From positions 4,947 to 68,946 of the forward strand of contig CAYGJA010000001.1 of assembly GCA_964350165.1 (NCBI GenBank): a stretch of 64,000 bases of DNA. The letters run 5' to 3'. Source of the DNA: an uncultured Candidatus Saccharibacteria bacterium. GTDB taxonomy: Bacteria; Patescibacteriota; Minisyncoccia; Phycocordibacterales; UBA1006. A program made the translations under genes and the position numbers. Within the stretch, counting starts at the first letter, position 1. Each line of letters starts with the position of its first letter. The notes beneath the pieces were generated by a model, which saw nothing but the letters and a program-made list of their open reading frames with translations, did no database searches and was not told where the DNA came from. Below, in pieces: positions 6,888-61,831 of this stretch.

Positions 6888-6890
6888 CAA

Positions 6891-7385: not shown

Positions 7386-7404
7386 ATATCTAAAAATAAA
7401 ACAA

Positions 7405-8740: not shown

Positions 8741-8786
8741 TCAAAAAAGTTCCAACTTCGCCCCAGACGGCCAACAAATGCTTTTT
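8741..8786 (+). repeat. Cassette-boundary repeat copy 1 (34-bp core AAAAAGTTCCAACTTCGCCCCAGACGGCCAACAA plus ATGCTTTTT)
   Basis: Core identical to the copies at 9258 and 10241. The 3' extension CAACAAATGCTTTTT is shared with the degenerate copy at 11411 and resembles the tRNA-Gln 3' end and flank (GGCAACAAATG). Confidence 0.8.
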
Positions 8787-8816
8787 CTATTATGAAAAAT
8801 AAAAAAGTCTGTTTTT

Positions 8817-8825
8817 TGCTACAAT
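8817..8825 (+). promoter_or_regulatory. Extended -10 (TGcTACAAT) 7 nt upstream of the NUDIX ATG; leaderless start
   Basis: TGCTACAAT-agccctc-ATG(8833). Confidence 0.45.
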
Positions 8826-8832
8826 AGCCCTC

Positions 8833-9261
8833 ATGAACAAATCAGAACATTTCCCAGAAGCTTTTTATAGAGTAAGTGTGCGTGGCATCATGCGTGACGG
8901 TGACAAATTCCTACTCGGACGCCACGGCAACACCTGGGAGACTTTCGGGGGAGGGTTAGATTTTGGAGAAAATTTACATGAAGCCTTGCGAAGAGAAATT
9001 CTAGAAGAAACAGGCTGTCACCTGACATACATATCAGAACAACCGATACTTGCCCTACCACATATTGTTCATGGAAAAAGAGAAATGGACTGGTTTTATA
9101 ACTTCCCAATCTATTACGAAGTTAAATTTGATATTTCTGAATTTGACCTATCTTTACAATATTCAGAATATAGATGGTTCACGGTCAAAGAAATTCAAAA
9201 TCTAAACGTCTTCGAGGGAGAGGAGGGAATAAAAGATGGTTTTGAGTCTCTTTTAAATTAA
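8833..9261 (+). CDS. NUDIX hydrolase
   Basis: 142 aa with the Nudix box GGGLDFGENLHEALRREILEETG. Cassette 1 of the tRNA-Gln island. Confidence 0.75.
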   Translation: MNKSEHFPEAFYRVSVRGIMRDGDKFLLGRHGNTWETFGGGLDFGENLHEALRREILEETGCHLTYISEQPILALPHIVHGKREMDWFYNFPIYYEVKFDISEFDLSLQYSEYRWFTVKEIQNLNVFEGEEGIKDGFESLLN

Positions 9262-9293
9262 AAAGTTCCAACTTCGCCCCAGACGGCCAACAA
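9258..9293 (+). repeat. Cassette-boundary repeat copy 2 (34-bp core)
   Basis: Perfect copy of the core. It overlaps the NUDIX stop codon. Confidence 0.8.
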
Positions 9294-9358
9294 CACAAAA
9301 ATAACCCCTCAAACAGGGTGTTTTTCAGCAAAATCACGTTGTAAACAAACAACTTTTT

Positions 9359-9378
9359 TAGGTTCGAACCCGAGTAGC
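9359..9378 (+). repeat. Remnant of the tRNA-Gln T-arm and acceptor
   Basis: TAGGTTCGAACCCGAGTAGC matches tRNA-Gln 6864..6880 (TAGGTTCGAGCCCTAGT) at 15 of 17 positions. It is not a foldable tRNA. Confidence 0.5.
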
Positions 9379-9585
9379 TTTTGAGGCTTAGGGTTTGTGG
9401 TTTTTTTAGTGTTAAAAGTAGAAATCAGGTTGAATAATATGGGTGCTTTTTAGTTTCGATCCTTCAGCCGGCCTAAAGCCTGGTCATGACCTAAAAACAA
9501 AATGTTTTAGTAGGATAAGCACAAGAAAAAAAAGAGACATCCCATACCCGCAAAATACTAGTAGAGAAGTTTTGAGAAAATTTTG

Positions 9586-9611
9586 CAAAAAAAGAACCCC
9601 TACTGAGGGGT
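9586..9611 (-). terminator. Intrinsic terminator for the macro-domain gene (minus strand)
   Basis: Minus-strand hairpin ACCCCT/AGGGGT followed by a U-run (an A7 tract on the plus strand), just downstream of the 9647 stop. Confidence 0.5.
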
Positions 9612-9646
9612 CCAACATAATTGGGGAGAAATAAAGAGTCCTAACC

Positions 9647-10156
9647 TTAAGCCAGCTGGGTGTTAAGCATTCGCTGAAACTCGGCCACCATCGATGGGTC
9701 ATTGTAGACCACAAAGGTGATACTCTCTAAGCTGCTATGTCGCGATAGATGATCCTTAACTCCTTGGACTATCTCACGGAGAGCCTCCTCTCTTGTTTCT
9801 TCAACTGCGCCCAGCATTACACCAGTGCGAATCATGGGAAGGGAAACTGTTCCGGCACCTGCGGTGTTTGCCTGATCGAGGCCAGCCCTTATGACTGTTC
9901 TCAGAGGAGCTTCGAGATCGTCTACCACAAAAATCACATCCTCAAATCCACCATTGTGTGGAGCCGTTTGAGGAGCATACACTGTGGTGCCTTGGGATAA
10001 AGACTTCCCTCTGGCTTGATCATGGAACATAGATCCTGCATTTTGCTGGATAACACGGTCGATGCCTCCAAACCACATACCACTAGAATTGATAGCTGTG
10101 ATCAAGGCGTCGGATTGAATGCGACTAATGTCGCCAGGAATAACGCGTACGTTCAT
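9647..10156 (-). CDS. Macro-domain protein (ADP-ribose / O-acetyl-ADP-ribose processing)
   Basis: 169 aa with the motifs GDISRIQSDALITAINSSG and GGIDRVI. Cassette 2. Confidence 0.75.
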   Translation of the reverse strand: MNVRVIPGDISRIQSDALITAINSSGMWFGGIDRVIQQNAGSMFHDQARGKSLSQGTTVYAPQTAPHNGGFEDVIFVVDDLEAPLRTVIRAGLDQANTAGAGTVSLPMIRTGVMLGAVEETREEALREIVQGVKDHLSRHSSLESITFVVYNDPSMVAEFQRMLNTQLA

Positions 10157-13429: not shown

Positions 13430-14113
13430 ATGACTTTCATGAATACCGTATTAACACCCAAACAAAAAGAAGTTCTCGACCTGATTGTTAATTTTTCTAG
13501 AAAAAATAATGCGACTACGCCTACTTTGGATTGGTTACGTCAAGAAATTGGTTGCAAATCAATCAACAGCGTTGTTAAACATCTAAAAGCCCTGGAAACA
13601 AAAGGCGTCATTGCTCGTCGCAAACACGCCAAAGAAAACAACATTGTCATCTTGGAACAAAAAAGCATAAGGGGCCCTCAGATGATATCGGTGCCAGTTA
13701 TTGCTTCGGTTGGTTGTGATAATATGAGCGTCTTTGCCCAAGAAAACACTGACGAATATCTAACAGTAGACGCTAGCCTGATCGGCAAAAAACGCCTCGT
13801 GGCCATTCGAGCCGAGGGCGACAGCATGAATGATGCTGGCGTAGAAAACGGAGATTATGCCCTGGTAGAGATTCTCGAGAATGGCGAACCAATCAAAAAT
13901 GGCGAAATCGTAACGGCCATCATTGACGGTATGGCAGTACTCAAAAGATACGAAAAAAAAGACGGTGTAGTTATCTTGTACCCACAATCCCGAAACCCTC
14001 AACACAAACCTATCGTTGTTAATCAATCCTTCCGAATTATAGGTCGACTATGGCAAATGATCCCAGGGTTTGCCGAGGATGATTTTACCTTTGTCCCCGA
14101 GCCTAGTTTTTAA
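13430..14113 (+). CDS. lexA: LexA repressor (wHTH + S24 peptidase)
   Basis: 227 aa. The N-terminal wHTH is TPKQKEVLDLI...LKALETKGVIAR. The C-terminus has a Ser-Lys dyad (AEGDSMNDAG; MAVLKRYEKKDG). Confidence 0.85.
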   Translation: MTFMNTVLTPKQKEVLDLIVNFSRKNNATTPTLDWLRQEIGCKSINSVVKHLKALETKGVIARRKHAKENNIVILEQKSIRGPQMISVPVIASVGCDNMSVFAQENTDEYLTVDASLIGKKRLVAIRAEGDSMNDAGVENGDYALVEILENGEPIKNGEIVTAIIDGMAVLKRYEKKDGVVILYPQSRNPQHKPIVVNQSFRIIGRLWQMIPGFAEDDFTFVPEPSF

Positions 14114-18304: not shown

Positions 18305-19978
18305 ATGACACAAGCAGAAGCCCTCCAAATCCTGAAAATGGGCCACAACGTATTCCTGACCGGACAACCGGGAGCAGGAAAAACCTATCTCCTCAATCAA
18401 TACATCGATATTCTCAAAAAACACAAAATCGAAGTAGCCGTGACCGCTTCGACTGGTATTGCCGCTACCCACATCGGTGGTACCACTATCCACTCCTGGT
18501 CTGGAATCGGCATCAAACAAAACCTGAATGCCAGACAGCTCGATGATTTGCTGGATCGGGAATATCTAGTTAAAAGAATCAGCAAAACCGAAGTGCTCAT
18601 CATCGATGAGGTTTCCATGCTGGATGCTGTCATGCTCGACGACATTAACAGCATTTGCAAAATCATGCGTCGAAGTGAAGAACCCTTTGGCGGACTTCAG
18701 GTGGTACTGGTTGGAGATTTTTTTCAGTTGCCACCCGTAAACAGAACCGGGGAGCCGATACCACCAGCCTATGCCTCGAGGGCTTGGCAAGAAGCACGTA
18801 TGGCTATTTGTTATCTATCAGAACAGTATCGACAAAAAGACGGGGTGCTCAATACCATCCTCAAGCAAATCCGTGAAAACAATGTCGAACAAGATATGTA
18901 TGACGAATTACTACGGACCACCAGTCGCACTTTTGATGATGGAATCGAGCCAGTACGGCTGTTCACCCATAATGCCGACGTAGACCAACTGAACAATAGC
19001 CGGCTAGCCGAACTCGATACCGAAATCAAGACTTTTGGTATGAGTAGCAAAGGAAAAGATAATCATGTGGAACGACTTATCAAATCCTGCCTGTCGCCAG
19101 AACATCTCCAACTAAGAGAAGGTGCCGTTGTAATGTGCACCAAAAATAACTTTGAACTGGGCTACGTCAATGGAACCATGGGCAAAATAATCGCCTTTGA
19201 TTCCAAAACAAAATTCCCAATTATCGAAACCACCGAAGAAAAAAGATTCACCATTACACCCGCCGAATGGGCAATAGAAGACAACGGCAAATTAATTGCT
19301 TCGATTGAGCAAATCCCGCTTCGTCTCGCCTGGGCAATTACCGTCCACAAAAGCCAGGGCATGAGCATCGACCGCGCCGAAATAGACTTGTCTCAAACTT
19401 TTGAATACGGCCAGGGGTATGTAGCCCTATCTCGACTGCGCGACATCAACGGGTTACGTCTTTTGGGGCTCAACGACGTAGCACTCCAGGTCAACCCCGA
19501 AATCATGGCCGCCGACAAAAAATTCTTGAAATTATCAGACGCGGCCAGGAGTAGGCTGAGTGAATTTAGCGATCAAGACCTCGAAACCAAGCACCATAGT
19601 AATATCATCGAACGTGGCGGGGTAATCAAGCCAAGCAAAAAAGAAGCAGTAGGGGAGCAGAAACCAAAAAAAACAGCGTCTCGAGAAAAAACCATGAACT
19701 TTATTTTGCAAACAAAAACTATTCCTCAGATTGCAAAAGAGAGGAGTCTAACCGAAGCAACAGTGATGAGCCATATCGAGGATCTCCTCTTAGACAACCG
19801 ACTGACCCAAAATGACATCGCATATCTGCAACCAAAGAACAAACAATTTACCAAAGGGCTTGAAAAAGTTCGCCAAGCTTTTGAGCAGACAGATAGCAAA
19901 AACCTAGGACCGGTAAAGGCTATCCTAGGTGATGCGTATGATTTCGATGAAATCAGGTTTTTTCGATTGTTTCTCTAA
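18305..19978 (+). CDS. PIF1/RecD-like ATP-dependent DNA helicase with a C-terminal HTH
   Basis: 557 aa with Walker A GQPGAGKTYLL, the PIF1-type motifs (VTASTGIAATHIGGTTIHSW; IDEVSML; VLVGDFFQLPPV), and a C-terminal helix-turn-helix. Confidence 0.75.
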   Translation: MTQAEALQILKMGHNVFLTGQPGAGKTYLLNQYIDILKKHKIEVAVTASTGIAATHIGGTTIHSWSGIGIKQNLNARQLDDLLDREYLVKRISKTEVLIIDEVSMLDAVMLDDINSICKIMRRSEEPFGGLQVVLVGDFFQLPPVNRTGEPIPPAYASRAWQEARMAICYLSEQYRQKDGVLNTILKQIRENNVEQDMYDELLRTTSRTFDDGIEPVRLFTHNADVDQLNNSRLAELDTEIKTFGMSSKGKDNHVERLIKSCLSPEHLQLREGAVVMCTKNNFELGYVNGTMGKIIAFDSKTKFPIIETTEEKRFTITPAEWAIEDNGKLIASIEQIPLRLAWAITVHKSQGMSIDRAEIDLSQTFEYGQGYVALSRLRDINGLRLLGLNDVALQVNPEIMAADKKFLKLSDAARSRLSEFSDQDLETKHHSNIIERGGVIKPSKKEAVGEQKPKKTASREKTMNFILQTKTIPQIAKERSLTEATVMSHIEDLLLDNRLTQNDIAYLQPKNKQFTKGLEKVRQAFEQTDSKNLGPVKAILGDAYDFDEIRFFRLFL

Positions 19979-23609: not shown

Positions 23610-26585
23610 ATGCTTGTCGTCTCACAATCGCATTTTCAAATGAAAAAAAGTATTTTTTTTCTTATGGCCACGTTCTTCCTGCAGCAACTGGCTGTGGGTC
23701 AAGGCATCGGCGACAACACTTTTTTACCGACTGCTGGCGGCCCAGAGAGAATCCAGGTGATCTCTCTAGAAGATAACCCCTTCCTGGCAGAGCACCTGAC
23801 AGCAGGGGAGCAAATATCTTATGTGGCCCTAATTAGTCCCATGAGCATTGTTTACGGGCTAGGGGCCGTAAAAGATAGGCTCTGGGTACTCCAAGGACAT
23901 CAGCAGGAAATCGCAAACCTTCTCTCTACAGAAAATGATTTCAAAAGGAGAAAAGGAGTAGAAATCCTGCTGGAAGCCATCGCAAACCCCAACGCCGATC
24001 ACGGGGTAGAGCTGGTCTTTCACTGGAAAGACACTCTTCACCAGAGATTGGGTATACAGGGAAAGGTGTATAAAGCCGCGACCTGGGAAGAGAGTGCTGT
24101 TCCAGATCGATATTTTTTTGTGCCAGGAGAAGGGCACAGCATGCCGGCCGTGCCTTACCTAGCAGAAGAAAGGGACTCCCTAATGATGGGGGCAATTGCC
24201 ACCATTGAAAGAACCCTCGAAACGGAACAAATTTTCGTTCTGTTCGAGCAAGCTGCTGACATCAGCAGTATGGTACGCCAGAAGTTCACCACGCTGAACC
24301 TGGCGGACAACCAAGGGATTCTTTTGGCAGGTGACCCGAGAGTGGCTGCCATAATGGTAACTGAGGAAATTAGCAAAATGGCATTCCTCAGCCTGACAGC
24401 AACATACCTAAGCTGGCAGGCGCAACAGCAACAAAACCTGCTGTTTCGAGGTGGTCCGGGCCGAGAAATAGTGCTTCCAAAGCTAAAGTTTCCGCAACAA
24501 CCGGCAAAAACGCCGAGGATTCCAACTCCGGAACCCCCCAAGCCACCCTCACCCTCCCCAGAACAGGCTAAAAAACTGCAGGAATGGCTCCAAAGAGCTG
24601 CTAGTGCCATCAAGACCATAGCAAAAGTCTGGGGAGATTCGGTTGCCACAGCCTACGAAATTAGGCTAGAGAAAAAAGGTCCCGACGATGACGTTTTGGT
24701 CATATCGAGCCCTACCAACCCAAAAAACTATGTCCTGGTATACCCAAGCCCAGATCAAGAGGGCATACTCAGAATTGCGAACGGTAACATGCACGGTGAT
24801 TCTGTTCGTACCAGAACAGAGCACCGACCGATTGCATACTGGGATCTGGAAGGCGATGCTCCGAGCTTGCTTCCAAACAAGGTGCTTTTACCTATGGCAC
24901 CATACCTGGCACCAACAGACAAGGAGGCGCTGGTGGAATGGCTCATGCTTCCATTTACAGAACAATTTGGGTGGAGTCAAATCTGGTACTTGGTGCGAGT
25001 AGCAGAGGAAGGAACGACGTCTCCTCAATCGGCAAAAAAAGCCTACCCTGGATACAAGGTGGTACGCTACATATTACCAGCCTCTAACCAGGTTGACCCT
25101 CTCAACGAAGAAGAGAGTGGGCATATGAAGGTTTTTAGGACGAGAATCGGCTACCAAGCCGGGCTTTTGGAACAAGGGCTAAGGCTAGCCTTGGCTAAAG
25201 CTGAAGAAGGCGATACGGAAGCCGTAGCAACCTTCCTCGCAAGTGCGAGAGAATCAGCTCCAGGCGAGGTCTTGGATCTGCTCAGTAGATACAGTCCCGA
25301 CAGCAAAGAGAGAAGGTCTCTGCGTTATGCAGCCAAGAGACTAATCCTCATGAGGGAAGGGCTGGAGAAAATAACAATTTTTCTGGAGGGGGAGGGCTCG
25401 GATATACGAGTACTCTATGAAGAGCTCCAAAGACAAAGAGAAATCCTCTACAAAGAGGAACTCCGAACGCTAAAAGAAGAGCTGGATCAACTTAAGAACA
25501 GATCGCAAAAACTCCTGGATGGAATCCGCAGAATTCAGGAAAAGGCGAAGAGAGGCAGGGCTTCTCACGAAGACATCACCGAGGCTTATCGCAAGATGGA
25601 AAGGATACTAGCGATTAGCGAAGGCCTGGAAGATGCCAGAACTGCTTTGGTCGGATTTCAGATCTGGGCAGAGGACATGCGGGGAAAGATCTACTCGGAC
25701 GACGCCGACGATGGACACATCGCGAATGAAAAAAACGAGGTGTCGAGACTTGTCCAGAAAGACCTCCAGATTGCTTGGCTACTATTGGCAAAAGCTCCAG
25801 ATGGAGAGATTGCCAACAAGGTACAAATGGCGGAGGGGTATTTTCAAAACATGCTCCAGTTCTATCATCCCAGGGAAACGATAAGCCCCGAAACACAAAA
25901 AGAACTCCGACGGTCTGCTAGCGCCATAGCAACCCTTCACAGGGAGGTAGGAAAGATGGAAACGTACCTGAACAAGGTACAAGACAGGTACTATCGTCTT
26001 CGTGGAAAGAAGTGGCAAAGCATGGTGACTGCCTTTGTCGGGAGCTATCGGCTGCTCCGAAAGTTTTCAAGTGCTTATCGAGAAATCGAAAGAATAGAAA
26101 CGCTGATTACCGGCGACCTCACTGATGAACAACAAGGCCATTGGGTGCAGATTCTGCAAGAAATACGAACGCAGCGAATCCAGCTGCTGGTCGATGAAGA
26201 AATCTTCCGGATTTCTTCAGAAATGACAGACAGGGTCCCGGAAGTCTACAGAGGAGAGCTTAAAAAATCTATAGCTCAACTACTGCTAAAAGTTTCCAAG
26301 GGAGAAATAGAATCTCCTAATGGTTACGGAAAATCCCCTTTTCACTTTGTAGAAAGGGGTACAGTAGAGGAGTTATTAACAAAGCTTCCTCATTTGCGGA
26401 CGGAAGGCGCTACGCCTGATGCCTATAAGAGATTTACAGGACAGCTTCTTGCCTTGTTGGGCAAGCAGCACAGCCTGGACGGTCTGGATCAGGCTCACCT
26501 GATTGGGCTTTCCGTCGAAATATCGACAAGATTCGATATCCATGAAGGCGTGGCAGCCATAGCCAATCCGGCGGAAAAAAAATAG
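23610..26585 (+). CDS. Large secreted protein (991 aa): signal peptide, Pro-rich linker, C-terminal coiled-coil region
   Basis: The ATG at 23610 or the ATG at 23640 (MKKSIFFLMATFFLQQLAVGQG) gives a signal peptide. There is a PTPEPPKPPSPSPEQ linker and long heptad-like stretches (ELQRQREILYKEELRTLKEELDQLKNRSQKLL). No recognisable family. Confidence 0.55.
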   Translation: MLVVSQSHFQMKKSIFFLMATFFLQQLAVGQGIGDNTFLPTAGGPERIQVISLEDNPFLAEHLTAGEQISYVALISPMSIVYGLGAVKDRLWVLQGHQQEIANLLSTENDFKRRKGVEILLEAIANPNADHGVELVFHWKDTLHQRLGIQGKVYKAATWEESAVPDRYFFVPGEGHSMPAVPYLAEERDSLMMGAIATIERTLETEQIFVLFEQAADISSMVRQKFTTLNLADNQGILLAGDPRVAAIMVTEEISKMAFLSLTATYLSWQAQQQQNLLFRGGPGREIVLPKLKFPQQPAKTPRIPTPEPPKPPSPSPEQAKKLQEWLQRAASAIKTIAKVWGDSVATAYEIRLEKKGPDDDVLVISSPTNPKNYVLVYPSPDQEGILRIANGNMHGDSVRTRTEHRPIAYWDLEGDAPSLLPNKVLLPMAPYLAPTDKEALVEWLMLPFTEQFGWSQIWYLVRVAEEGTTSPQSAKKAYPGYKVVRYILPASNQVDPLNEEESGHMKVFRTRIGYQAGLLEQGLRLALAKAEEGDTEAVATFLASARESAPGEVLDLLSRYSPDSKERRSLRYAAKRLILMREGLEKITIFLEGEGSDIRVLYEELQRQREILYKEELRTLKEELDQLKNRSQKLLDGIRRIQEKAKRGRASHEDITEAYRKMERILAISEGLEDARTALVGFQIWAEDMRGKIYSDDADDGHIANEKNEVSRLVQKDLQIAWLLLAKAPDGEIANKVQMAEGYFQNMLQFYHPRETISPETQKELRRSASAIATLHREVGKMETYLNKVQDRYYRLRGKKWQSMVTAFVGSYRLLRKFSSAYREIERIETLITGDLTDEQQGHWVQILQEIRTQRIQLLVDEEIFRISSEMTDRVPEVYRGELKKSIAQLLLKVSKGEIESPNGYGKSPFHFVERGTVEELLTKLPHLRTEGATPDAYKRFTGQLLALLGKQHSLDGLDQAHLIGLSVEISTRFDIHEGVAAIANPAEKK

Positions 26586-53743: not shown

Positions 53744-54337
53744 ATGTACGAAGGCGACTTTTTCAAAAAACCAAACAGCAAACCCAAACTCAAACAAATT
53801 GTAGAAAGAATACAATCCTTTGCTTCTCCCAAACTTTTTCTGACCCTTCTTACAATCGCAATGCTTAATTCCGAACTTCCAGCACAAGCAACCGGAATGT
53901 CTACGTCCATAGCAGACATAGGACTCACTAGCGGCCCCCCAATGATCGATATTCCCAACCCCACAGGAAAAGAGGGGACAGAATACACCGAAGCGAACGG
54001 GCCGCCGCCGATAGTGGATATCTTTACAGTATCTTCAGAAACAACTAATCAGCCACAAACAATTAACCAGCCTCCGGAAATGGTTACTATCGTCTCAGGG
54101 GATGACCGATTCCGAGGAACAGACAGAAAAATTGCTCAACGATTCTTCCAATTACACCCTAGTTTTGACATGGAAAACATATATGGTGTCTATGAAACAG
54201 AGTACCAAAGAGACAATGCCCTAGAGGCCGCAAAAAAATTCGATGATTCTTCACAATGGGACATCGAAACAATATCTGGAACTACAGACGGTGATCCCGG
54301 TGATGAAAAAAAATTCTTTATTGTATTCAAAAAATAA
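53744..54337 (+). CDS. Hypothetical secreted protein
   Basis: 197 aa with a signal peptide and a Pro/Thr-rich region. Confidence 0.4.
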   Translation: MYEGDFFKKPNSKPKLKQIVERIQSFASPKLFLTLLTIAMLNSELPAQATGMSTSIADIGLTSGPPMIDIPNPTGKEGTEYTEANGPPPIVDIFTVSSETTNQPQTINQPPEMVTIVSGDDRFRGTDRKIAQRFFQLHPSFDMENIYGVYETEYQRDNALEAAKKFDDSSQWDIETISGTTDGDPGDEKKFFIVFKK

Positions 54338-54398: not shown

Positions 54399-54470
54399 GG
54401 CCCTATCGTCTAACGGTTAGGACGCCAGGTTCTCATCCTGGAAATCGGAGTTCGATTCTCCGTAGGGTCA
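54399..54470 (+). tRNA. tRNA-Glu (anticodon CUC)
   Basis: Acceptor GGCCCUA/UAGGGUC. Anticodon stem CCAGG/CCUGG with loop UUCUCAU. T-arm CGGAG-UUCGAUU-CUCCG. No encoded CCA. Confidence 0.85.
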
Positions 54471-54550
54471 CATCATCTAAAAGCCTTCTGCAACAACACT
54501 CTTTGAAGTGGGATTGTGGGGTATTCAGAACTGAATACTTGACATTTAAT
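54460..54550 (+). repeat. attB-like site: tRNA-Glu 3' end (CCGTAGGGTCAC) plus a downstream flank duplicated at 58314
   Basis: The 26 nt CCGTAGGGTCACATCATCTAAAAGCC are identical at 58314..58339. The next roughly 65 nt are about 75% identical. Confidence 0.75.
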
Positions 54551-54637
54551 CTAAAAAATGGTATTATACTTTTGATTAATTCTTTTTAAATTCACCCGTA
54601 CGAAAACGAAATCCCTGGTACGGGCAGGGTAAAAAAC

Positions 54638-55411
54638 ATGAAAATTACTAATCACAGCGGCGCATGGGCCGCAGAGATTGAGATTTTGGAAGGGCCCATG
54701 TCGGCCCTGTGTCTGGAGATTGGCATTTTTTGCCGCAACCGCCAGCGCGCACGTCGGACCTTCACCATCGGCCAAGCCTTGGCCTCTGGCAAGTACCCAG
54801 AAGGACTTGCCGAGGTTGAGACCTGGCTCGAGAAGACGGCCGGCTCAGCCGAGCTCAAGCACAAGGTGCTTGCAGCGGTCGCAGTGGCCATCTTGCGGAC
54901 GGAGGTATCCACCTATGACTGGTTCCTAATGGCAGAAATTGTTGGCCAAGAGAAACCTTTTGGAAAAGAGTTCGAGGAAGGATACCGAGTCGAGGTGCCA
55001 CAGCGTCTCCTCCCCTCAAGCTGGACTGGCGAAGCCAAGTTTGGCAATTTGGAGGCTGCCGTGGCCTACGCCAATGACCAGGCGGACAATTTGGAGGCCT
55101 TGGAAATTGTCCACGAGGACAAATGGGGGAACCGCACCCCGATCGCCCTTGTGAAGCCTGCAAGCATACTGTGCTTGCATGGCGAAGTTCACTACCTGGC
55201 CAAACGTCTGTCTTTCGATCTCGAAACGATCGAAAGGTGGGTGGTACGCCATTGGGGATTAAAAGAGGGGTTCGAAACCCACCTTGAGGACTTGGAAGAC
55301 CTAAAAGCTGAGATTTGGAGCTACTCCAGACTCACAGCCCATTGGGGCATGAGAGTGTGCCCAGCCCTAGGCTGGGATACAGACTGGCAACCGCAAGAAG
55401 AGGAGCTTTAG
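54638..55411 (+). CDS. Hypothetical protein encoded by a conspicuously GC-rich ORF
   Basis: 257 aa. Its codon usage is rich in GCC/CGC/GGC, unlike the neighbouring genes. No recognisable domain. It is the first cassette after tRNA-Glu. Confidence 0.5.
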   Translation: MKITNHSGAWAAEIEILEGPMSALCLEIGIFCRNRQRARRTFTIGQALASGKYPEGLAEVETWLEKTAGSAELKHKVLAAVAVAILRTEVSTYDWFLMAEIVGQEKPFGKEFEEGYRVEVPQRLLPSSWTGEAKFGNLEAAVAYANDQADNLEALEIVHEDKWGNRTPIALVKPASILCLHGEVHYLAKRLSFDLETIERWVVRHWGLKEGFETHLEDLEDLKAEIWSYSRLTAHWGMRVCPALGWDTDWQPQEEEL

Positions 55412-55528
55412 GCTCACTATCTAATAAGAAAAAGGGTCGGATGACATCAGTTGTCCGACCGCTTTTTATTTGGGGAATTTAGATGCTCGCCGCCAAATTT
55501 CTGGTGGCTTTTTTAATCTCACTCCGCA

Positions 55529-55690
55529 CCCCCAAAAGTTCTGAAAACCAAGCCGTAGGGTCACTAGAATTTAAAGTGTTGTAAATAAAGGGTTTTAGAG
55601 GGTGTCCTAGGGGGTGTTCCGAATTCTTGGTGAACATGTTTTCAAAAGATAGTTTTTGGTGGGTTATAATTGTTTTATACAAATTCACGT
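55529..55690 (+). repeat. Island repeat copy A (full): tRNA-like arm, core CCGTAGGGTCAC, and a roughly 130-bp conserved arm ending in TTATAATTGTTTTATACAAATTCACG
   Basis: About 95% identical to copy D (58908..59068). Core at 55553..55564. The arm ends about 20 nt before the DUF2726 ATG. Confidence 0.8.
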
Positions 55691-55710
55691 TATTTTTAAA
55701 GATTCTCTCA

Positions 55711-56217
55711 ATGACAAATCTCACCATTCTCATCATCGTCGGCGTTGGATTTGCCGCTATTGTTTACTTCTTTGGCAAGAAAGAACCCTCTGAGGGAAAA
55801 ACCAAGGAAGAATATCACTACCAACCAAAGAAGTTCTTTATGACGCGCGCCGAGCATGAATGCTTTGATGCTTTGGTCGAGGCAGTGGGGGATCAGTATC
55901 ATGTTCTAGCCCAAGTACATCTGAATTCAATTGTGGACCACAAAGTGACGGGTCAAAACTGGAAAGCAGCATTTCGGCACATCAGCCAAAAATCTGTCGA
56001 CTTTGTGCTCTGTGACAAGGATTACCTATCTCCAAAACTAGCGATAGAGCTTGATGACAAAACACACGAAAGACCTGATCGGATGTTGCGTGATGCTGAG
56101 GTGGAGAGAATCCTAAAAGATGCCAAGGTTCCTTTGCTCAGATTGGAAAACCATGGGAGCTTTGATGTGGGAGAGATAAAGGAAAAGATTCAAGGTTCTC
56201 TCGTAGTAATAGGGTAA
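55711..56217 (+). CDS. DUF2726-family protein with an N-terminal TM anchor (paralogue of 6891..7385)
   Basis: The ATG at 55711 gives MTNLTILIIVGVGFAAIVYFF. The core is SVDFVLCDKDYLSPKLAIELDDKTH. The track ORF 55627 starts inside the repeat. Confidence 0.6.
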   Translation: MTNLTILIIVGVGFAAIVYFFGKKEPSEGKTKEEYHYQPKKFFMTRAEHECFDALVEAVGDQYHVLAQVHLNSIVDHKVTGQNWKAAFRHISQKSVDFVLCDKDYLSPKLAIELDDKTHERPDRMLRDAEVERILKDAKVPLLRLENHGSFDVGEIKEKIQGSLVVIG

Positions 56218-56290
56218 TTATGGCTTTACTAAGCCCTTTTGGGGTGGTATTTTCTCAATGAGAAATAGAATACTTAACTTCTAATTACTA

Positions 56291-57190
56291 ATGAAACGTT
56301 GGAAAACAATTCCAAAAAATCGAAAGCTGGCTCTACTGGCTGTAGGGTTGCTTGTACTTGCCATGGTTGGTTGTGTTTCAAAGAGATCGATCAGCTCTAT
56401 TGCCACGAACAACACTGATGCGATGCCTGAAAACCCTCTTACCGGGTTGGATTATGTACCACCGTCTATTGATGGAGTTTCCTATGGCGACTATCTTGAT
56501 TCGATTCCTGATGGTTCCATGTATATTGGCTCAAGCCGGGGTCCGATTGGCATAGACGCTAGTTTTGTGGGTGGTGATACTGAAATTTTTCAACGAGATC
56601 GATTTTTGGCTCAAAACGAGACATATAATTATTATTCTCCTTATAATATTGGCACATCGTATCAAGGTGTGACTGGCCAGGGAGAATACACCGCCCATAC
56701 CGCTAAGATTAGATTGGAGTATAACGGAGTGGAGGTTTGGTCGGGAGAACGGTACAAGCTTTACGAATTATTCACAGATTCACCTAAAAAGGGGTTCTTG
56801 GTATCACTAGGATGGATATCTGAGTCCGAGATTCTCTTCAATGTAAAAAGTGATGGCTGGGGTCAGAGTTTAGAAATGTGGATACTTGATGTCTCTAACA
56901 TGGCTACTCGTAAGCTGAATTTGCCCGAAAACTATGTTTCGGTGCCATATTTGTCGCCTAATGGTAAATATGTAATGTTCGGCATCAAGACTTCACCTGA
57001 AGGTGATGCAGATTGGGTTGATGAATGGTTCTTGTATGAAATACAAACCAACAAGATTACTCCGTTACCACCAGGCTCATATGGGGCCTGGTATCTTCCT
57101 GTCGATACGTACAACAAAATCGAAGAAGCATTGCAAGCCTCGATGGGATCAGGGTTTTTACACCCAAAAGTTCGGAAAACCAAGCCGTAG
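56291..57190 (+). CDS. Hypothetical lipoprotein, beta-propeller-like
   Basis: 299 aa with a lipobox (LLVLAMVGC) and a Y/G/D-rich beta-rich domain. The last 9 codons and the stop are encoded by repeat copy B. Confidence 0.5.
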   Translation: MKRWKTIPKNRKLALLAVGLLVLAMVGCVSKRSISSIATNNTDAMPENPLTGLDYVPPSIDGVSYGDYLDSIPDGSMYIGSSRGPIGIDASFVGGDTEIFQRDRFLAQNETYNYYSPYNIGTSYQGVTGQGEYTAHTAKIRLEYNGVEVWSGERYKLYELFTDSPKKGFLVSLGWISESEILFNVKSDGWGQSLEMWILDVSNMATRKLNLPENYVSVPYLSPNGKYVMFGIKTSPEGDADWVDEWFLYEIQTNKITPLPPGSYGAWYLPVDTYNKIEEALQASMGSGFLHPKVRKTKP

Positions 57191-57270
57191 GGTCACTAGA
57201 ATTTAAAGTGTTGTAAATAAAGGGGTTTTTGGGGGTGTCCTAGGGGGTGTTCCGAATTATTTGTGAACGT
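57163..57270 (+). repeat. Island repeat copy B (arm truncated)
   Basis: Core at 57185..57196, followed by TAGAATTTAAAGTGTTGTAAATAAAGGGG...GTGTTCCGAATT, after which the similarity is lost. Confidence 0.75.
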
Positions 57271-57322
57271 GTGAAGATTGTGGAAGATATGTAAAACAGC
57301 CAGCAAACAAAGAGTCAGATTC

Positions 57323-58312
57323 TCAAATCTCTTTATTTCGCATTCTCACTAATTCAGTCTCTTGTATAGAATCGCCTTGGTCACCAAAAAATAAACTTTC
57401 AAGCACGGACCAGAGATAGAGCGAGGATGAGATAACAATTATCCAATGGGCTTGTAATATATAAGTTTCTACAGCAAAAACCCCAACTCCCACTAAGAGC
57501 GCAAGAAGAAGGTGAATAGTTTTTGCATCCTCTCTCACATACTCGATCCCTTTGCGTCCACGATTCTCGGTGTGAAGAAATGCCAAAGCCAAAATCTGCA
57601 AGGAAGATATGACAACGGGAACAATATAGGCACCCTCTCTTGTTTCATAAGCAATAACACCCGTACCAATAGCCGATGCGACGAGCGACAGATACACAAA
57701 CATTTTTATTGCGCTGAATTGGAAGGGGGTTGGTTTTTTTGAGGTAAAAGCAAAGAAAAGCCCGCACGCTAATCCAAAAAATACGAACGGGGGTAAGAGA
57801 TTAAAAAGTCCACCATCATTCCATATTTCTAAAATAAGACTCAAAACCTCTCCCCGTAAAGGTGTTAGCCCCAACAAGAGTATCCATATTAGTGAGAGTA
57901 AAAAAACGGTCGATTCAGTGATTTTGGGCAAAAATCCTAATTTCTTTGCAAGCCCTTGCATGTAAAAGTGACTGTTGTCCCCAATACGACGTGTTTTATT
58001 GGGATAGTAATGCATCCAAGGCGCAACGATTCCTAAAAGCAACCCACCAAAATAAACAGCAAAACGTACTCCAAGTCCAACCCCTAGCTCTTGCAATTGA
58101 GTTGCCATGTAATACATACCGAAACTCAAGGTAACCAAGATGGCCACACCAATACCGCGCTTAATACGCAACCCTTTCTGACGGTCTTTTCTCATGAATC
58201 TAGTATATCGCAACCAGTGAGACTCAAGAATACTTAAATGATGAACTCTTATTTTACCCAATTTTCTAACGTAACAATAAGGCTTTTGATACCCAAAAGT
58301 TCGGAAAACCAA
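57323..58312 (-). CDS. Hypothetical polytopic membrane protein (about 8 TM); true start probably internal
   Basis: 329 aa. The N-terminal 15 residues (MVFRTFG...) are just the reverse complement of repeat copy C with a TTG start. The likely real start is a downstream ATG. Confidence 0.45.
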   Translation of the reverse strand: MVFRTFGYQKPYCYVRKLGKIRVHHLSILESHWLRYTRFMRKDRQKGLRIKRGIGVAILVTLSFGMYYMATQLQELGVGLGVRFAVYFGGLLLGIVAPWMHYYPNKTRRIGDNSHFYMQGLAKKLGFLPKITESTVFLLSLIWILLLGLTPLRGEVLSLILEIWNDGGLFNLLPPFVFFGLACGLFFAFTSKKPTPFQFSAIKMFVYLSLVASAIGTGVIAYETREGAYIVPVVISSLQILALAFLHTENRGRKGIEYVREDAKTIHLLLALLVGVGVFAVETYILQAHWIIVISSSLYLWSVLESLFFGDQGDSIQETELVRMRNKEI

Positions 58313-58400
58313 GCCGTAGGGTCACATCATCTAAAAGCCCTGTATAGCAACACCTTGTGAAGTGGAGTTATGGGGTTTTCAGAACTACTTATATTGACTT
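58256..58400 (+). repeat. Island repeat copy C (hybrid): repeat-type left arm, core, then tRNA-Glu-type right flank
   Basis: ACCCAATTTTCTAACGTAACAATAAG...CCCAAAAGTTCGGAAAACCAAG + CCGTAGGGTCAC (58314..58325) + ATCATCTAAAAGCC... This is a P-O-B'-like junction. Confidence 0.75.
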
Positions 58401-58810
58401 ATCTTCTTATGTATGGTTTGTTATTGATGAATCCAAGAACCTTTACCATGAAAGTAAAAAGACGCAGCATAGCCGTGGCAAGCTTGCTGTTTATCCTCGC
58501 CATGGCAGCCCAGATTCTGGGCCACCATGATTTAGCCACCTTCGTTTTTGTTCTACTGCTGGCCCCAGTGGTGGTCGAGGTCACTCAAAAACACCCGCAA
58601 CACCGCTGGTGGATTGGGTACATCTTTGCCGCGATCATCATGTGGGTCGACCCAGGGGTCGTACCCACTTTCTGCGGCACGAATGAACTGCCCGATACCG
58701 GGTGGTGGCCATACCTTGCCCGGCCGCTCGAGTATTTCGTCTCACTACTGCTCGCCATCATTGCGCTGATGACGGTAGAGCCGGAGCTGCGAATCAAAAA
58801 TGAAGACTAG
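58370..58810 (+). CDS. Hypothetical membrane protein (4 TM)
   Basis: 146 aa. The 5' end lies within the duplicated tRNA-flank sequence. Confidence 0.4.
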   Translation: MGFSELLILTYLLMYGLLLMNPRTFTMKVKRRSIAVASLLFILAMAAQILGHHDLATFVFVLLLAPVVVEVTQKHPQHRWWIGYIFAAIIMWVDPGVVPTFCGTNELPDTGWWPYLARPLEYFVSLLLAIIALMTVEPELRIKNED

Positions 58811-58907
58811 ACTGACTGTCAAAGCCGCCCTTTAGGAAGGCGGCTTCTTTTTGCATACTTTCTCTAAAACACCAGATCGGATACTGCTTTTCTAATGTCA
58901 CCCCTCA

Positions 58908-59068
58908 ACCCCAAAAGTTCCGAAATTCAAGCTATTGGCTCACTAGAATTTAAAGTGTTGTAAATAAAGGGTTTTAGAGGGTGCCCTAGGGGGTGTTCCG
59001 AATTCTTAGCGAAGATGTTTTCAAAAGATAGTTTTTGGTGAGTTATAATTGTTTTATACAAATTCACG
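58908..59068 (+). repeat. Island repeat copy D (full arm, degenerate core CTATTGGCTCAC)
   Basis: The arm is about 95% identical to copy A. It ends 10 nt before the ATG at 59078. Confidence 0.75.
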
Positions 59069-59077
59069 TAAAATCTT

Positions 59078-59416
59078 ATGGAATCACTACCAAGCACAGA
59101 TAACAGCTATAAGGGACACATAGAAAGACTAAAAGCCGAATTGGCTCTTGCCACAAATCCAACAGATGTACTACGGATTATTGCAGAGGGTATCAGCATG
59201 GTTGATAAGATCGAAGACCTTTTGCTTTCTGTTGAATTACAAAAAGTTAAACCCGCGTACGAAACAGAAAACCTAACGACTCTAGACAAAGCTAGAACCA
59301 TGGCCATGTCTTTAGATTTGTTTCCAAAGATAGCGGGAGCAATGGCGCGCGTGATAATCTCTGACTTGAAAAAAAGATTTATTGGAGATATTCCGGAAGA
59401 AACTCTAGAAAAGTAA
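59078..59416 (+). CDS. Hypothetical helical protein
   Basis: 112 aa with no recognisable motif. It lies directly downstream of repeat arm D. Confidence 0.4.
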   Translation: MESLPSTDNSYKGHIERLKAELALATNPTDVLRIIAEGISMVDKIEDLLLSVELQKVKPAYETENLTTLDKARTMAMSLDLFPKIAGAMARVIISDLKKRFIGDIPEETLEK

Positions 59417-59478
59417 CTCGTCTTTATTCTGACTATCTACCAGAGAAATGAAATCTTTTCCTGTTATATTTTCATTCA

Positions 59479-59570
59479 ACCCAATTTTCTAACGTAACAA
59501 TAAGAATTTTGGTCCCGAAAAGTTCGGAAAACCTAGCCGTAGGGTCACTAGAATTTAAAGTGTTGTAAAA
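59479..59570 (+). repeat. Island repeat copy E (left arm plus core, right arm truncated)
   Basis: CCCAATTTTCTAACGTAACAATAAG...AAAAGTTCGGAAAACCTAG + CCGTAGGGTCAC (59536..59547) + TAGAATTTAAAGTGTTGTAAAAAACCC. Confidence 0.7.
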
Positions 59571-59696: not shown

Positions 59697-60962
59697 ATGA
59701 AAAGACCAATCACGAGAAAAAAGGCGGCGATCACAATCATCGCCATCCTATTCCTTGCACTCGGCGCCAGGGGACAGGTTGCCATCGACACGGCGAAAAT
59801 AATAAAAATTATTAGAGTGTCGGACAGTCTCAACCGGGCCGACATGGTCGCGGTCGAACAATATCGCCTAAACCCTACCGCTGTTACGCGCCCAACAGAA
59901 GCATACCAGCGACTCGACCCCAAGACGGGGGGAGCATTAAGAAAAAAATGGTTTCTAGGGAGATACGGGGAAAACCTGAGCTGGGAACAGCTTCAAGGTT
60001 TTTTGCGAGAAAAAGCCCTGTTCTTTGGTTGCTCTAACATCATCAGTCTGGAGCATCATCCAAATCTTTTGATGTTTGATTTTTATCTTTTTGAAATCAA
60101 GCAAGAACAGGAGGTAAACCTTAATCGGTATCTACTGCCTGGTATGAAAAAATTTCCGGCCAAAAATAGAAAAGGCATCTTGTACGTGGTGCGGCCGATA
60201 CTACTGCCGTACCAAGTTAGGAAATTTGAATTAGGCGGGATAGCAATGGAAGGTCTATTGGGCCGAACAAGTGCTTTTGTTCTTGATGGGTCCACGCAAG
60301 CGGAGAACTCGACCTGTTCTTTTTTCTTTTTCCGATACCTCATCCAGAAAGGGTACAGGAAAACCAATTCATTTTTCCATGACTACGAACGTCTTCCAAA
60401 AAAAGACGGCTCTCTGTATTGGCTGGCGGATAGCCTGGGCCTAAAAAAAGAATGGGAAAGAATCAGAAAAATGGTTGCCAAGGGGAAGCTTGGAACCTAT
60501 ACCGCTAACGAGTTAGGGCATGTTATCGCTAGCAAAACACACCAAAATTCTAGCGAGCCTTCCCCCGAAAGGAGTCAGGCTGGCGAGGCTTTTTCTGATG
60601 GCACGAGCCTTACTTGGCTTCTCAAAAATAAGAACATCCCTGTTTTTGTGCTGGTATTGAACTCCTACATTAACAGGGTTCAGCAATCTGGAGCTCCAGA
60701 TTATGCGGAAACAGAGCGCATAACCAATCTCGTGATAAAAAAAATGGAGATCTCCATTCCCGCCCAATTGCGAGAAAAAAAGCGCTACGGCGACGCAAGA
60801 TTGATTGAATCACTCTTTGCTGATTCGCCCCCAAAAACAGCTCTGTTAAAAATATATATTTTGTTTTCAAGCAGAGATTATAAGCGATTAGTAATGAAGC
60901 CCTTTGTGAGAGGCTTCACTGAGGAGCTAAGAAGGGGAGACATTTTGGGGATATTTGAATAG
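59697..60962 (+). CDS. Hypothetical protein (421 aa)
   Basis: N-terminal hydrophobic segment. No recognisable catalytic motifs. It is not a tyrosine or serine recombinase by motif. Confidence 0.4.
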   Translation: MKRPITRKKAAITIIAILFLALGARGQVAIDTAKIIKIIRVSDSLNRADMVAVEQYRLNPTAVTRPTEAYQRLDPKTGGALRKKWFLGRYGENLSWEQLQGFLREKALFFGCSNIISLEHHPNLLMFDFYLFEIKQEQEVNLNRYLLPGMKKFPAKNRKGILYVVRPILLPYQVRKFELGGIAMEGLLGRTSAFVLDGSTQAENSTCSFFFFRYLIQKGYRKTNSFFHDYERLPKKDGSLYWLADSLGLKKEWERIRKMVAKGKLGTYTANELGHVIASKTHQNSSEPSPERSQAGEAFSDGTSLTWLLKNKNIPVFVLVLNSYINRVQQSGAPDYAETERITNLVIKKMEISIPAQLREKKRYGDARLIESLFADSPPKTALLKIYILFSSRDYKRLVMKPFVRGFTEELRRGDILGIFE

Positions 60963-61129: not shown

Positions 61130-61831
61130 ATGTCAGAACACCATCACCACGAAAACAATCATTCTTCAAAAGAAGAGCACAGGCATACTAGCAAAAAAAA
61201 TGCCGCCGCTTTTGATTTTTCAAAAATAATGCAACCCAAAATTCTTGCGCCCATAATTACCGCAACTGTTGTGGTGATTGTTTTTCTGTTGCTCCTTTCC
61301 AACGGCTGGATTGTGGCAGCAACCGTAAACGGTTCGGCCATTAGCCGACACGAAGTACGAAATTTAGTAGAAAAAGATTCTGGCGCAGATGCTTTGCGTG
61401 GACTCATCTCCCAAAAACTACTAGACCAAGAAATCAAAGACAAAAAAATATCAGTTACTGAGGCTCAGATTGATGAAGAAATAGCAACCATTAGTGACCT
61501 CTTGGAAAAACAAGGACTTACTTTTGCCGAAGCTATCGAAGGGCAGGGCCTAACCATGAATGAGGCCAGAAAGCAGGTCAAACGACAACTCGAACTAGAA
61601 GGATTATTTGCGGATAGCGTCATTGTGAGCGAAGAAGAAATCAATGCTTTTATCGAAAGCAACCAGGTGCCCCTACCAGAAGACGAGGGCGAAAAAGCAG
61701 AACTATTGTCCAGCGTGCGTGAGCAAATGGAACAAGAAAAACTCTACAATGAATATATTGCCAAAGAAGCCGAACTACGAGAACAAGCAAGCATCAAGTT
61801 TTTTGTAGACTACCTAGACAGCAAAGAATAG
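61130..61831 (+). CDS. Hypothetical membrane-anchored protein with a SurA-N-like helical domain
   Basis: 233 aa with a His-rich N-terminus, one TM, then LISQKLLDQEIKDKKISVTEAQIDEEI, which is chaperone-like. Confidence 0.35.
   Translation: MSEHHHHENNHSSKEEHRHTSKKNAAAFDFSKIMQPKILAPIITATVVVIVFLLLLSNGWIVAATVNGSAISRHEVRNLVEKDSGADALRGLISQKLLDQEIKDKKISVTEAQIDEEIATISDLLEKQGLTFAEAIEGQGLTMNEARKQVKRQLELEGLFADSVIVSEEEINAFIESNQVPLPEDEGEKAELLSSVREQMEQEKLYNEYIAKEAELREQASIKFFVDYLDSKE

Follow-up and report, generated by a model that had tools for sequence, protein, structure and literature searches.

The stacking of islands at tRNA genes is familiar, and the closest analogue of the locus reported here is the set of ssrA islands of Dehalococcoides. 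These islands lie in tandem and are bounded by direct repeats, and just 5′ of every repeat stands a conserved motif that has no counterpart in the RNA gene. Their cargo has an unusual codon bias, and some of the units lack the integration module and have been put forward as cis-mobilizable (PMC3146451). Cis-mobilizable elements (CIMEs) are defined as att-flanked elements without integration or transfer genes, and the source of this definition cites Pavlovic et al. 2004 on accretion at tRNA genes (PMC5704250). In tycheposon islands, an incoming element integrates at the intact tRNA gene and pushes older ones inward (10.1101/2020.12.28.424599). Partial tRNA copies and repeats are, in general, the footprint and expected product of site-specific integration (PMC9897764). 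The subject of this report is an orphan open reading frame (ORF 54638-55411), rich in guanine plus cytosine (GC), in a 64,000 nt stretch of an uncultured Candidatus Saccharibacteria bacterium (assembly GCA_964350165.1, contig CAYGJA010000001.1, positions 4,947 to 68,946), referred to as the window. The ORF is probably the cargo of a small non-autonomous integrative cassette, S1, the tRNA-proximal member of a five-unit tandem array at a tRNA-Glu(CUC) gene. The array is a miniature variant of familiar island stacking at tRNA genes, and differs by scale and design: units of 0.6-1.6 kb, two to three standardised promoter-bearing arm types, and a host belonging to the candidate phyla radiation (CPR).

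A public 1139-bp Logan unitig (L001), identical to window positions 54434-55572, begins in the tRNA gene and ends just past a second copy of the last 12 bases of that gene, and because of this end point a search for repeats was undertaken. The 12-mer, CCGTAGGGTCAC, occurs as five exact plus-strand copies in the window (in the tRNA gene and at 55553, 57185, 58314 and 59537), compared with 0.05 expected, and a sixth, variant core (CTATTGGCTCAC) is located at 58932. The ~18-nt motif AAAGTTCGGAAAACCAAG, allowing up to three mismatches, has five occurrences (0.2 expected), each directly 5′ of a non-tRNA core. On its 3′ side every core has a conserved arm of about 60 nt, which belongs to one of two types: type A (ATCATCTAAAAGCC...) after the tRNA gene and core J3, and type B (TAGAATTTAAAGTGTTGTAAA...) after J1, J2, J3b and J4. 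A 13-nt inverted repeat (IR-L), 48-49 nt past the core, closes each arm and is complementary at 10-12 of 13 positions to the right-end motif of its own unit. The exact 12-mer is found at four of the five non-tRNA junctions, and the adjacent arm sequence varies. This is the layout of tandem islands: the first unit starts at 54472, directly 3′ of the intact tRNA gene, and a tRNA-end repeat stands at each distal boundary, the one at 58932 being the conserved variant. The features of the locus are listed in Table 1.

Table 1. Features of the tRNA-Glu locus, in window coordinates (J, core copy; S, unit; IR-L and IR-R, left and right inverted repeats).
Feature	Position	Strand	Remarks
tRNA-Glu(CUC), attB-like array anchor	54399-54471	+	ARAGORN; Rfam tRNA 61.8 bits
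Core J0, CCGTAGGGTCAC	54460-54471	+	Last 3 nt of T-stem, 3′ acceptor strand, discriminator base and 1 further nt
Unit S1	54472-55564	+	1093 bp, GC 0.511; only gene is the orphan ORF 54638-55411
A-type left arm of S1	54472-54532	+	Ends in IR-L GGTATTCAGAACT (54520-54532)
Promoter-like site of S1	54539-54567	+	TTGACA-17-TATTAT with TG extension; 11/12 consensus match
Leader hairpin of S1	54595-54624	+	CCCGTAC...GTACGGG, directly before purine-rich ribosome-binding region
GC-rich orphan ORF under study	54638-55411	+	ATG start, 257 aa; N-domain (about aa 1-90) conserved, acidic C-domain variable
Intrinsic terminator of S1	55435-55470	+	11-bp stem and T-run
Right arm of S1	55507-55552	+	IR-R AGTTCTGAAAACC (55537-55549), then AAG
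Core J1, right boundary of S1	55553-55564	+	Exact copy of CCGTAGGGTCAC
Unit S2	55565-57196	+	B-type arm with promoter (55641-55670); DUF2726 restriction endonuclease (REase)-fold gene 55711-56217; 299-aa lipoprotein-like ORF 56291-57190; IR-R, core J2
Unit S3	57197-58325	+	B-type arm; multi-pass membrane ORF 57323-58195 on minus strand; IR-R, core J3
Unit S4a	58326-58943	+	A-type arm; GC-rich 120-aa membrane ORF 58448-58810; terminator; right arm ending in core variant AAGCTATTGGCTCAC
Unit S4b	58944-59548	+	B-type arm with promoter; 112-aa ORF 59078-59416; IR-R, core J4
Truncated B-arm stub, distal array end	59549-59569	+	Exact 21-nt match, divergent beyond
SurA-like gene, right-hand anchor of variable region	61130-61831	+	42% identity (E = 6e-53) to SurA-like gene downstream of tRNA-Glu in distant relative L013

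A first-pass annotation of this DNA, made from the sequence alone, had put the ORF in the first cassette slot after the tRNA gene, and it does occupy unit 1 of an array of five bounded by copies of the tRNA 3′ end. Its description as lying directly downstream of tRNA-Glu is right as to proximity, but the ATG stands 166 nt past the tRNA gene and does not abut it. The further proposal that this is the newest cassette is plausible for a first slot under the tycheposon accretion model; it comes from that model only, and secondary cores may also take insertions.

Units S2 and S4b share 184 nt at 91% identity, comprising right arm, core, arm and promoter (repeat family D1). Two cargo ORFs run into the repeats. 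The 299-aa ORF of S2 ends within the right arm and core J2, so that its last 12 or so residues are repeat-encoded, and the minus-strand ORF of S3 has a listed TTG start at 58312, in the right arm just 5′ of core J3, with its first ATG at 58195 (290 aa). Between the last core and the SurA-like gene lies a 421-aa ORF (59697-60962) with a signal-peptide-like N-terminus, no family match and no counterpart in L013, which may be an older, boundary-eroded part of the variable region. The right arms were also considered as decayed full-length tRNA copies, but the signal was marginal at J3 and J4 (z about 2, p about 0.03) and absent at J1, J2 and J3b. Nor do the ends of L001 represent population heterogeneity or an empty site: the right end falls in a sequence repeated in the genome, and the left end, at the tRNA anticodon, would be a graph branch arising from a second tRNA-Glu species in the sample.

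The array resembles the Dehalococcoides islands in its tandem units downstream of a stable-RNA gene, the direct repeats of the 3′ end, the motif 5′ of the repeats (likewise unalignable with the anchor gene), the maladapted codons of its cargo and the high variability between strains. The anchor, however, is tRNA-Glu and not transfer-messenger RNA, the repeat is 12 bp and not 20 bp, and units of 0.6-1.6 kb with one or two genes contrast with multi-kb ones; there is no serine-recombinase module in view, a promoter-bearing arm opens each unit, and the host is a CPR bacterium. Like CIMEs, the units are att-flanked, carry no integration or transfer genes and stand in tandem at a tRNA 3′ end, and CIMEs are thought to be mobile only with help in trans or in cis; S1 in particular retains cores at both ends, corresponding to attL and attR. 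CIMEs are decayed integrative and conjugative or integrative and mobilizable elements, whereas the array units show no remnants of such genes, have no helper element in view, and look like purpose-built modules (arm, promoter, cargo, terminator, arm) that have been kept across genomes. The tycheposon islands of Prochlorococcus are similar in occurring in a streamlined genome without classical mobile elements, in being tRNA-adjacent with scattered partial tRNA copies, and in being centred on cargo. They are kilobases long and have tyrosine recombinases and replication modules, none of which are found among the array genes, and no sequence relationship was detected. Integron arrays and clusters of attC sites lacking integrases (CALINs) share the ordered, small and mostly single-gene units beside a fixed site, with conserved separators ending in inverted repeats, but the present array has no attC-type single-stranded DNA hairpin and no IntI, promoters and terminators are carried by the units themselves, one cassette lies inverted, and the core is derived from a tRNA.

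Judged from its sequence, S1 would be a complete transcription unit, with its own promoter, leader hairpin, ORF and terminator. Its left arm is identical at 49 of 61 positions to the arm after J3 and at 50 of 61 to the arm after tRNA-Glu in a related contig (L015), and the −35 and −10 positions are kept in all four A arms. The right-end motif of S1 is complementary to its IR-L at 12 of 13 positions. The sole close homolog of the ORF protein (P0002) is encoded on contig L002, in which positions corresponding to 54590-54619 of the leader are 100% identical, although the proteins are only 59% identical. A terminator is found at the same place in L002, with compensatory changes in the stem (GGTCGGA/TCCGACC versus GACCAGA/TCTGGTC). 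Since L002 shares the A arm, the promoter, the leader stretch and the compensated terminator, it is the cassette, and not the ORF alone, that is the conserved entity.

The leader hairpin is not unusually stable (z = -0.5) and has no match in Rfam, and was rejected as a known riboswitch or other known RNA. All four genes of the family described below have an upstream hairpin with a 3′ strand ending in GGGC, followed by A and a purine-rich Shine-Dalgarno sequence (window 54590-54637, L002 113-159, L011 ~630-656, L012 ~320-346), and their stems vary in length and sequence. The hairpin may act as a translational operator or serve to stabilise the mRNA. Another hairpin, with a perfect 8-bp stem (GTATTCAG-AA-CTGAATAC, 54522-54539), overlaps S1's IR-L and reaches up to the −35 box; the other A arms have not kept it.

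Related loci were reached through MurF homologs, giving eight related contigs, and a MurF-based scan of GTDB representatives found no close relative. The MurF homologs that bear names are from Patescibacteria, Parcubacteria, Paceibacteria and Kaiserbacteria, and the host is placed in Patescibacteria. The tRNA-Glu(CUC) gene is identical at 70-73 of 73 positions in five related CPR contigs. In L015, a complete A-type unit directly follows tRNA-Glu and ends exactly at a core variant, as at J3b of the window, with unrelated DNA beyond it. The A arm of this contig is 50-55/61 identical to those of the window, and the right arms of S4a and of the L015 unit match at 86 of 100 positions, the same core variant included. 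The B arm directly follows tRNA-Glu in L003 and L005 (56/61 identity). Across genomes the arms are 82-92% identical, while the third-codon positions of MurF and of the penicillin-binding protein gene are only 38-41% identical. The slot after the tRNA gene varies among the relatives. In three of them the contig runs no further than this gene, breaking off within its 3′ end or exactly at it, and one such contig, of 39.9 kb, stops at the last base of the core; the L015 unit ends at the core variant; and the distant relative L013 has a bare tRNA-Glu without arms or repeats, the whole stretch from tRNA to SurA differing between it and the window. Contigs L008 and L009 are identical in MurF, in the tRNA and in their arm, which is of a third type, and past it they diverge into entirely different cargo.

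Exact-match scans were empty for the right arm plus core (genome representatives and viral contigs), for the leader (viral contigs and Joint Genome Institute (JGI) metagenomes), and for the B arm and the core-plus-A-arm and core-plus-B-arm junctions (viral contigs). The core-plus-B-arm junction matched one JGI contig, which was the only exact match of such scans.

Several of the related loci carry further rearrangements. Within the A-type cassette of L015, between the cassette promoter and a 59-aa cargo gene, is an insertion-sequence-like segment (4270-5232) encoding a 303-aa HTH_38/HTH_32 protein on the minus strand, with a GC content (0.43) below that of the host and its own inverted repeats (AAACCCGAAC). 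This protein was considered as a cassette recombinase and rejected, as its distinct terminal repeats and lower GC give it the look of an independent insertion sequence. Just upstream of the intact tRNA-Glu in L003 (1435-1576), L005 (3643-3785) and L004 (11289-11448) is a copy of the tRNA-Glu 5′ part (GGCCCTATCGTCTAACGG..TAGGA), which is followed by 120-160 nt of conserved non-tRNA sequence containing a CGCCAGGT(T/C)CCTGGCG hairpin. These could be rearrangement remnants, or else a tRNA that is split or contains an intron and has escaped recognition; tRNA genes with group I introns have been described in Patescibacteria (PMC13011429). A 197-aa ORF without family match (53744-54337) is present between MurF and tRNA-Glu of the window, and in the relatives this place is empty or taken by an M23 peptidase gene (L013, L015, L016), so the left side of the tRNA is not fully syntenic either.

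The explanation proposed for the array starts from a layout common to all units. A core is followed by an A or B arm of ~60 nt, which is closed by a 13-nt inverted repeat; then come a promoter, the cargo (one or two genes) and a terminator, and a right arm bearing the complementary inverted repeat leads to the next core. The units would most likely move by site-specific recombination, with a recombinase from another locus acting on the core. New ones would enter at the 3′ end of the tRNA gene or at a secondary core and build up by accretion, in the manner of CIMEs and the Dehalococcoides ssrA islands. Excision of S1 is predicted to leave the tRNA body directly followed by TAGAATTTAAAG, with a scar reading ...GATTCTCCGTAGGGTCAC joined to TAGAATTTAAAGTG. 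The S1-specific circle would have the junction AGTTCTGAAAACCAAGCCGTAGGGTCACATCATCTAAAAGCCTTCTGC, that is, AGTTCTGAAAACCAAGCCGTAGGGTCAC joined to ATCATCTAAAAGCCTTCTGC, a sequence absent from the chromosome.

A number of points weigh against this explanation of the ORF and its array. No Phage_integrase, Recombinase, Resolvase, rve or transposase was found in about 50 ORFs scanned in the window, itself a part of a 377-kb contig, which included all array genes and left a few short ORFs and the 43.9-50.6 kb housekeeping block outside the scan; the units would therefore be non-autonomous and need an enzyme from another locus. With 12 bp, the exact core is short for a tRNA att identity block. Neither a same-species empty site nor a circular junction was observed for S1, and identical cargo was not seen in two different genomic contexts. 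The point of divergence between L008 and L009 lies past their shared arm and not at the core, which suits arm-end exchange or homologous recombination at least as well as a crossover at the core. The arms could also be conserved through selection on their promoter or regulatory role, with no recent mobility behind it. Finally, the function suggested below for the ORF protein is a guess based on context and on a fold-level match at 9% identity.

There is some chance, though a rather small one, that natural transformation and homologous recombination bring about the exchange of the units, as with the 'minimal mobile elements' of Neisseria. The core-plus-arm modules would then be promoter and terminator platforms serving as homology anchors, and no site-specific recombinase would be needed. 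The lack of a recombinase among the scanned ORFs fits this explanation, as do the common arm of L008 and L009 with cargo differing right past it, and the 184 nt shared by S2 and S4b, which provide enough length for recombination homology. The competence protein DprA, encoded in the window (694-1557, minus strand), also speaks for it, and genes for LexA and a PIF1/RecD-like helicase (13430-14113, 18305-19978) bear on the same question. On the other hand, the most invariant element is exactly the 3′-terminal 12-mer of the tRNA, while the neighbouring arm varies, and it is at the last base of the core that units are bounded and that assemblies break. Partial tRNA repeats are what site-specific integration is expected to produce (PMC9897764), and platforms of this sort leave the copying of a tRNA acceptor-stem fragment between genes unexplained.

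With site-specific integration retained as the probable origin of the array, the ORF would belong to a familiar category, that of cargo genes in horizontal circulation at an integration hotspot beside a tRNA gene. It is present as first annotated, with a length of 257 aa, and the GC-rich run quoted from it (GCCGCAACCGCCAGCGCGCACGTCGGACC) begins at 54732. Its composition was compared with a reference set of 63 non-overlapping window ORFs of at least 100 aa. The GC content is 0.556 (GC1, GC2 and GC3, for the three codon positions, are 0.605, 0.419 and 0.643), against set means of 0.429 for GC (sd 0.042) and 0.406 for GC3 (sd 0.066). It ranks top in GC among the 63 ORFs, its GC3 lies at z = +3.8 relative to the others, and its synonymous-codon likelihood under their usage is the second worst of 63 (z = -2.4). 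The ORF favours GAG, GCC, GGC and AAG, whereas the genome favours GAA, GCT/GCA, GGA/GGT and AAA. The ratio of GAG to GAA is 20:12 (26:74 in the genome), GCC accounts for 17 of 28 Ala codons (34% in the genome) and GGC for 11 of 18 Gly codons (26%). Neighbouring genes use AAA, GAA and ATT for 79%, 74% and 45% of the respective codon families, in line with the preference first noted for them. Both GC3 and codon usage thus lie outside the distribution of the window, which supports the earlier reading of the gene as compositionally foreign. The other part of that reading, a cassette beside a tRNA gene, is supported by the array.

The ORF and P0002 have a dN/dS of 0.19, and no alternative frame is open in both sequences, so the annotated frame is coding and under purifying selection. 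It is thus a real gene, and one that looks expressed. The GC excess stops at the ends of the coding sequence, the 5′ flank within S1 having 35% GC and the 3′ flank 44%. The same coding-only excess is seen in L002, with flanks of 33-44% GC across both homologs.

High GC3 is shared by the cargo of the A-arm cassettes. About 3 kb downstream in the same array, the GC-rich gene of S4a has a GC3 of 0.667, above that of the ORF in S1 (0.64), and the values are 0.717 for L002 and 0.667 for the 59-aa ORF of L015, making four genes from at least three genomes. The arms of these cassettes have 33-44% GC. B-arm cargo is host-like, with GC3 of 0.36-0.47 (0.47 and 0.41 for the two genes of S2), so the atypical composition holds for A-arm units (0.64 and 0.667 versus 0.41) and not for B-arm units. 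L015 and L016 represent a CPR genome of about 50% GC, with a housekeeping GC3 of 0.52-0.58. All four A-arm cargo genes suit the codon usage of L015 better than that of the window, while B-arm cargo and MurF controls fit their own genomes. This codon fit shows sufficiency and not the identity of the donor, as any GC-richer reference would fit better. Given the A arm at tRNA-Glu of this ~50% GC CPR genome and the better codon fit, a GC-richer member of the clade is a sufficient source. GC-richness is a hallmark of A-arm cassettes, and the GC-richer pool from which their cargo comes most simply lies inside the same CPR clade and not outside the CPR.

The first-pass annotation had favoured a recent acquisition from a high-GC donor, with best hits expected outside the CPR. 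Direct and recent transfer of this kind into the tRNA-adjacent slot is improbable. It would account for the GC3 (z = +3.8) and poor codon fit, for the orphan status of the protein without CPR-annotated homologs, and for a distant relative of its N-domain (P0004, below) on a phage- or mobile-element-like contig of 54% GC. No match could be placed outside the CPR with confidence, however, and the ORF protein has none in phage or plasmid records. The GC-richness ends at the start and stop codons, and the AT-rich promoter, leader, arms and terminator belong to a cassette design tied to tRNA-Glu in the CPR. The A arm adjoins tRNA-Glu in L015, a CPR genome of about 50% GC that has the same cassette type and matches the codon usage of the ORF better than the window does. 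Nor does the gene look recent: its sole close homolog (59% amino acid identity) lies in the same cassette frame, with an N-terminal dS of 0.59 and a C-terminal part that is saturated at synonymous sites, yet has a GC3 of 0.72. As both copies are GC3-rich (0.64 and 0.72) despite this deep synonymous divergence, high GC3 is a trait long maintained in the cassette family, and not the mark of a fresh, un-ameliorated import.

An integron-like system, with an attI-like site beside the tRNA gene and attC-like folded separators, has already been largely refuted and is very improbable. The tandem single-gene units, their position-dependent order beside a fixed platform, and the ~100-nt conserved junction elements with inverted-repeat ends all suggest it. 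Four junctions folded as single-stranded DNA, on both strands, were no more stable than shuffled sequences (z -1.4 to +1.2), and the junctions, read by eye, have no RYYYAAC/GTTRRRY core sites (IR-R has GTTCGGA). The units also have their own promoters and terminators, the cargo of S3 is inverted, and there is no adjacent IntI-type recombinase. A transposon or miniature inverted-repeat transposable element was rejected as well; the 13-nt inverted repeats do exist (10-12 of 13), but all units are flanked by one and the same tRNA-derived 12-mer, in place of a target-site duplication that varies from site to site, and no transposase was found among the scanned ORFs. Just as improbable as the integron-like system is a native gene made GC-rich by selection on its protein or mRNA, for although purifying selection (dN/dS 0.19), GC1 and GC2 values inside the window range and the well-formed promoter and terminator agree with it, the excess is chiefly at third codon positions, the region is completely different between relatives, the gene is missing from nearly all sequenced genomes, and unrelated cargo of the same cassette type has the same GC3 bias.

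The ORF protein has no match in Pfam, PHROGs, PADLOC, NCBIfam or PDB sequences, in agreement with its first description as lacking recognisable motifs. A word-indexed search of 5.8 billion cluster representatives recovered only the protein itself and P0002 (59% identity, equal length). An exhaustive phmmer scan of 1.84 billion representatives gave two further, weak matches, P0003 (104 aa) and P0004 (154 aa), that are confined to residues 1-85. A profile search with the N-domain added no family members, tblastn against GenBank phages and PLSDB plasmids gave no match, and Foldseek against viral structures returned nothing under E = 0.005. In all, about 15 billion proteins gave only these three relatives, and the ORF defines an orphan family of four members (the ORF protein, P0002, P0003 and P0004). 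P0004 is encoded on a contig of 54% GC made up of overlapping small genes, which is phage- or mobile-element-like; given this contig, the family may belong to a wider mobile pool outside the CPR.

The two domains of the protein have different histories. Residues 1-88 of the ORF protein and P0002 are 84% identical, with a dS of about 0.6, and past residue 88 the identity falls to 50%, synonymous sites are saturated (pS, the proportion of synonymous differences, is 0.82) and there are several indels. The simplest reading of these values is domain swapping in a larger, unsampled family, in which a conserved N-domain would have been joined to C-domains of much older divergence. A hypervariable C-domain of the type made by diversity-generating retroelements was rejected, as no template/variable repeat pair was found, nor a reverse transcriptase among the scanned ORFs. 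The C-domain is acidic (isoelectric point 4.7) and Trp-rich. An AlphaFold model of the N-domain alone is confident (mean predicted local distance difference test (pLDDT) score 82.8, predicted template modelling (pTM) score 0.73) and has four strands and two helices. The full-length AlphaFold2 model is poor (pLDDT 57.5), so that only the N-domain is usable and the C-domain is not modelled. The alpha+beta fold of the N-domain is similar to that of the small-subunit ribosomal protein cS23/PSRP-3 (Ycf65), at 9% identity, and as simple a fold also resembles WNK CCT-like domains, eL28 and de novo designed proteins. Pfam gives the protein no match, be it to PSRP-3 or to another family, and at the sequence level it falls outside cS23/PSRP-3. 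The likeness of the model to cS23 is best taken as a fold label and offers no evidence for family membership or ribosome binding.

A role in conflict between host, phage and mobile elements can be put forward tentatively for the ORF protein. This guess comes from its context, namely the membrane proteins of the array and the nuclease-fold neighbour in S2, DUF2726 being a DNase of REase fold known from defence contexts (PMC3710099). What is gained for the ORF itself is modest: an orphan family of four, in which the C-domain is variable and the N-domain has a confident model, and so a candidate conflict-system protein.

The wider significance lies in the array. CPR bacteria (Patescibacteria) have tiny genomes, and how they gain accessory genes is little understood. 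A tRNA-anchored stack of promoter-equipped mini-cassettes without a recombinase would, if true, be a compact route of gene flux, especially if it is shared across lineages 7-10 GC points apart. A bolder proposal, and one that is more doubtful than the cassette itself, is a clade-wide gene-capture platform, integron-like in logic. In this proposal the 3′ end of tRNA-Glu would be the primary site, and single-gene expression cassettes would be stacked and exchanged across GC-differing lineages by an unlinked recombinase; the A arm would mark a pool of GC-rich accessory genes in horizontal circulation, including the two-domain family with its possibly autoregulatory leader hairpin. A tRNA-anchored stack would also account for a practical problem: in this clade the tRNA-Glu 3′ end is exactly where assemblies break (three relatives), and the genes that vary most are in this way systematically missing from metagenome-assembled genomes.

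Elsewhere in the window, a tRNA-Gln gene (6817-6888) is followed 3 nt on by a second DUF2726 REase-fold gene (6891-7385), which fits the codon usage of the window worst of all (z = -3.2) and whose product is 29% identical to the DUF2726 protein of S2. Next come a 137-aa orphan, an AbiU2-type HEPN gene (7790-8665), a NUDIX gene and a minus-strand Macro-domain gene, and the first three genes after tRNA-Gln are markedly AT-rich (GC 0.30-0.36). The region (6817-10156) looks like a defence islet. It was considered as a similar repeat-bounded array headed by tRNA-Gln and rejected, as no repeat of the 3′ end of this tRNA was found. Away from any tRNA gene, a 991-aa ORF (23610-26585) without a Pfam domain has a GC of 0.49, a GC3 of 0.50 and the third-worst codon fit (z = -2.2), and may be another acquired gene.

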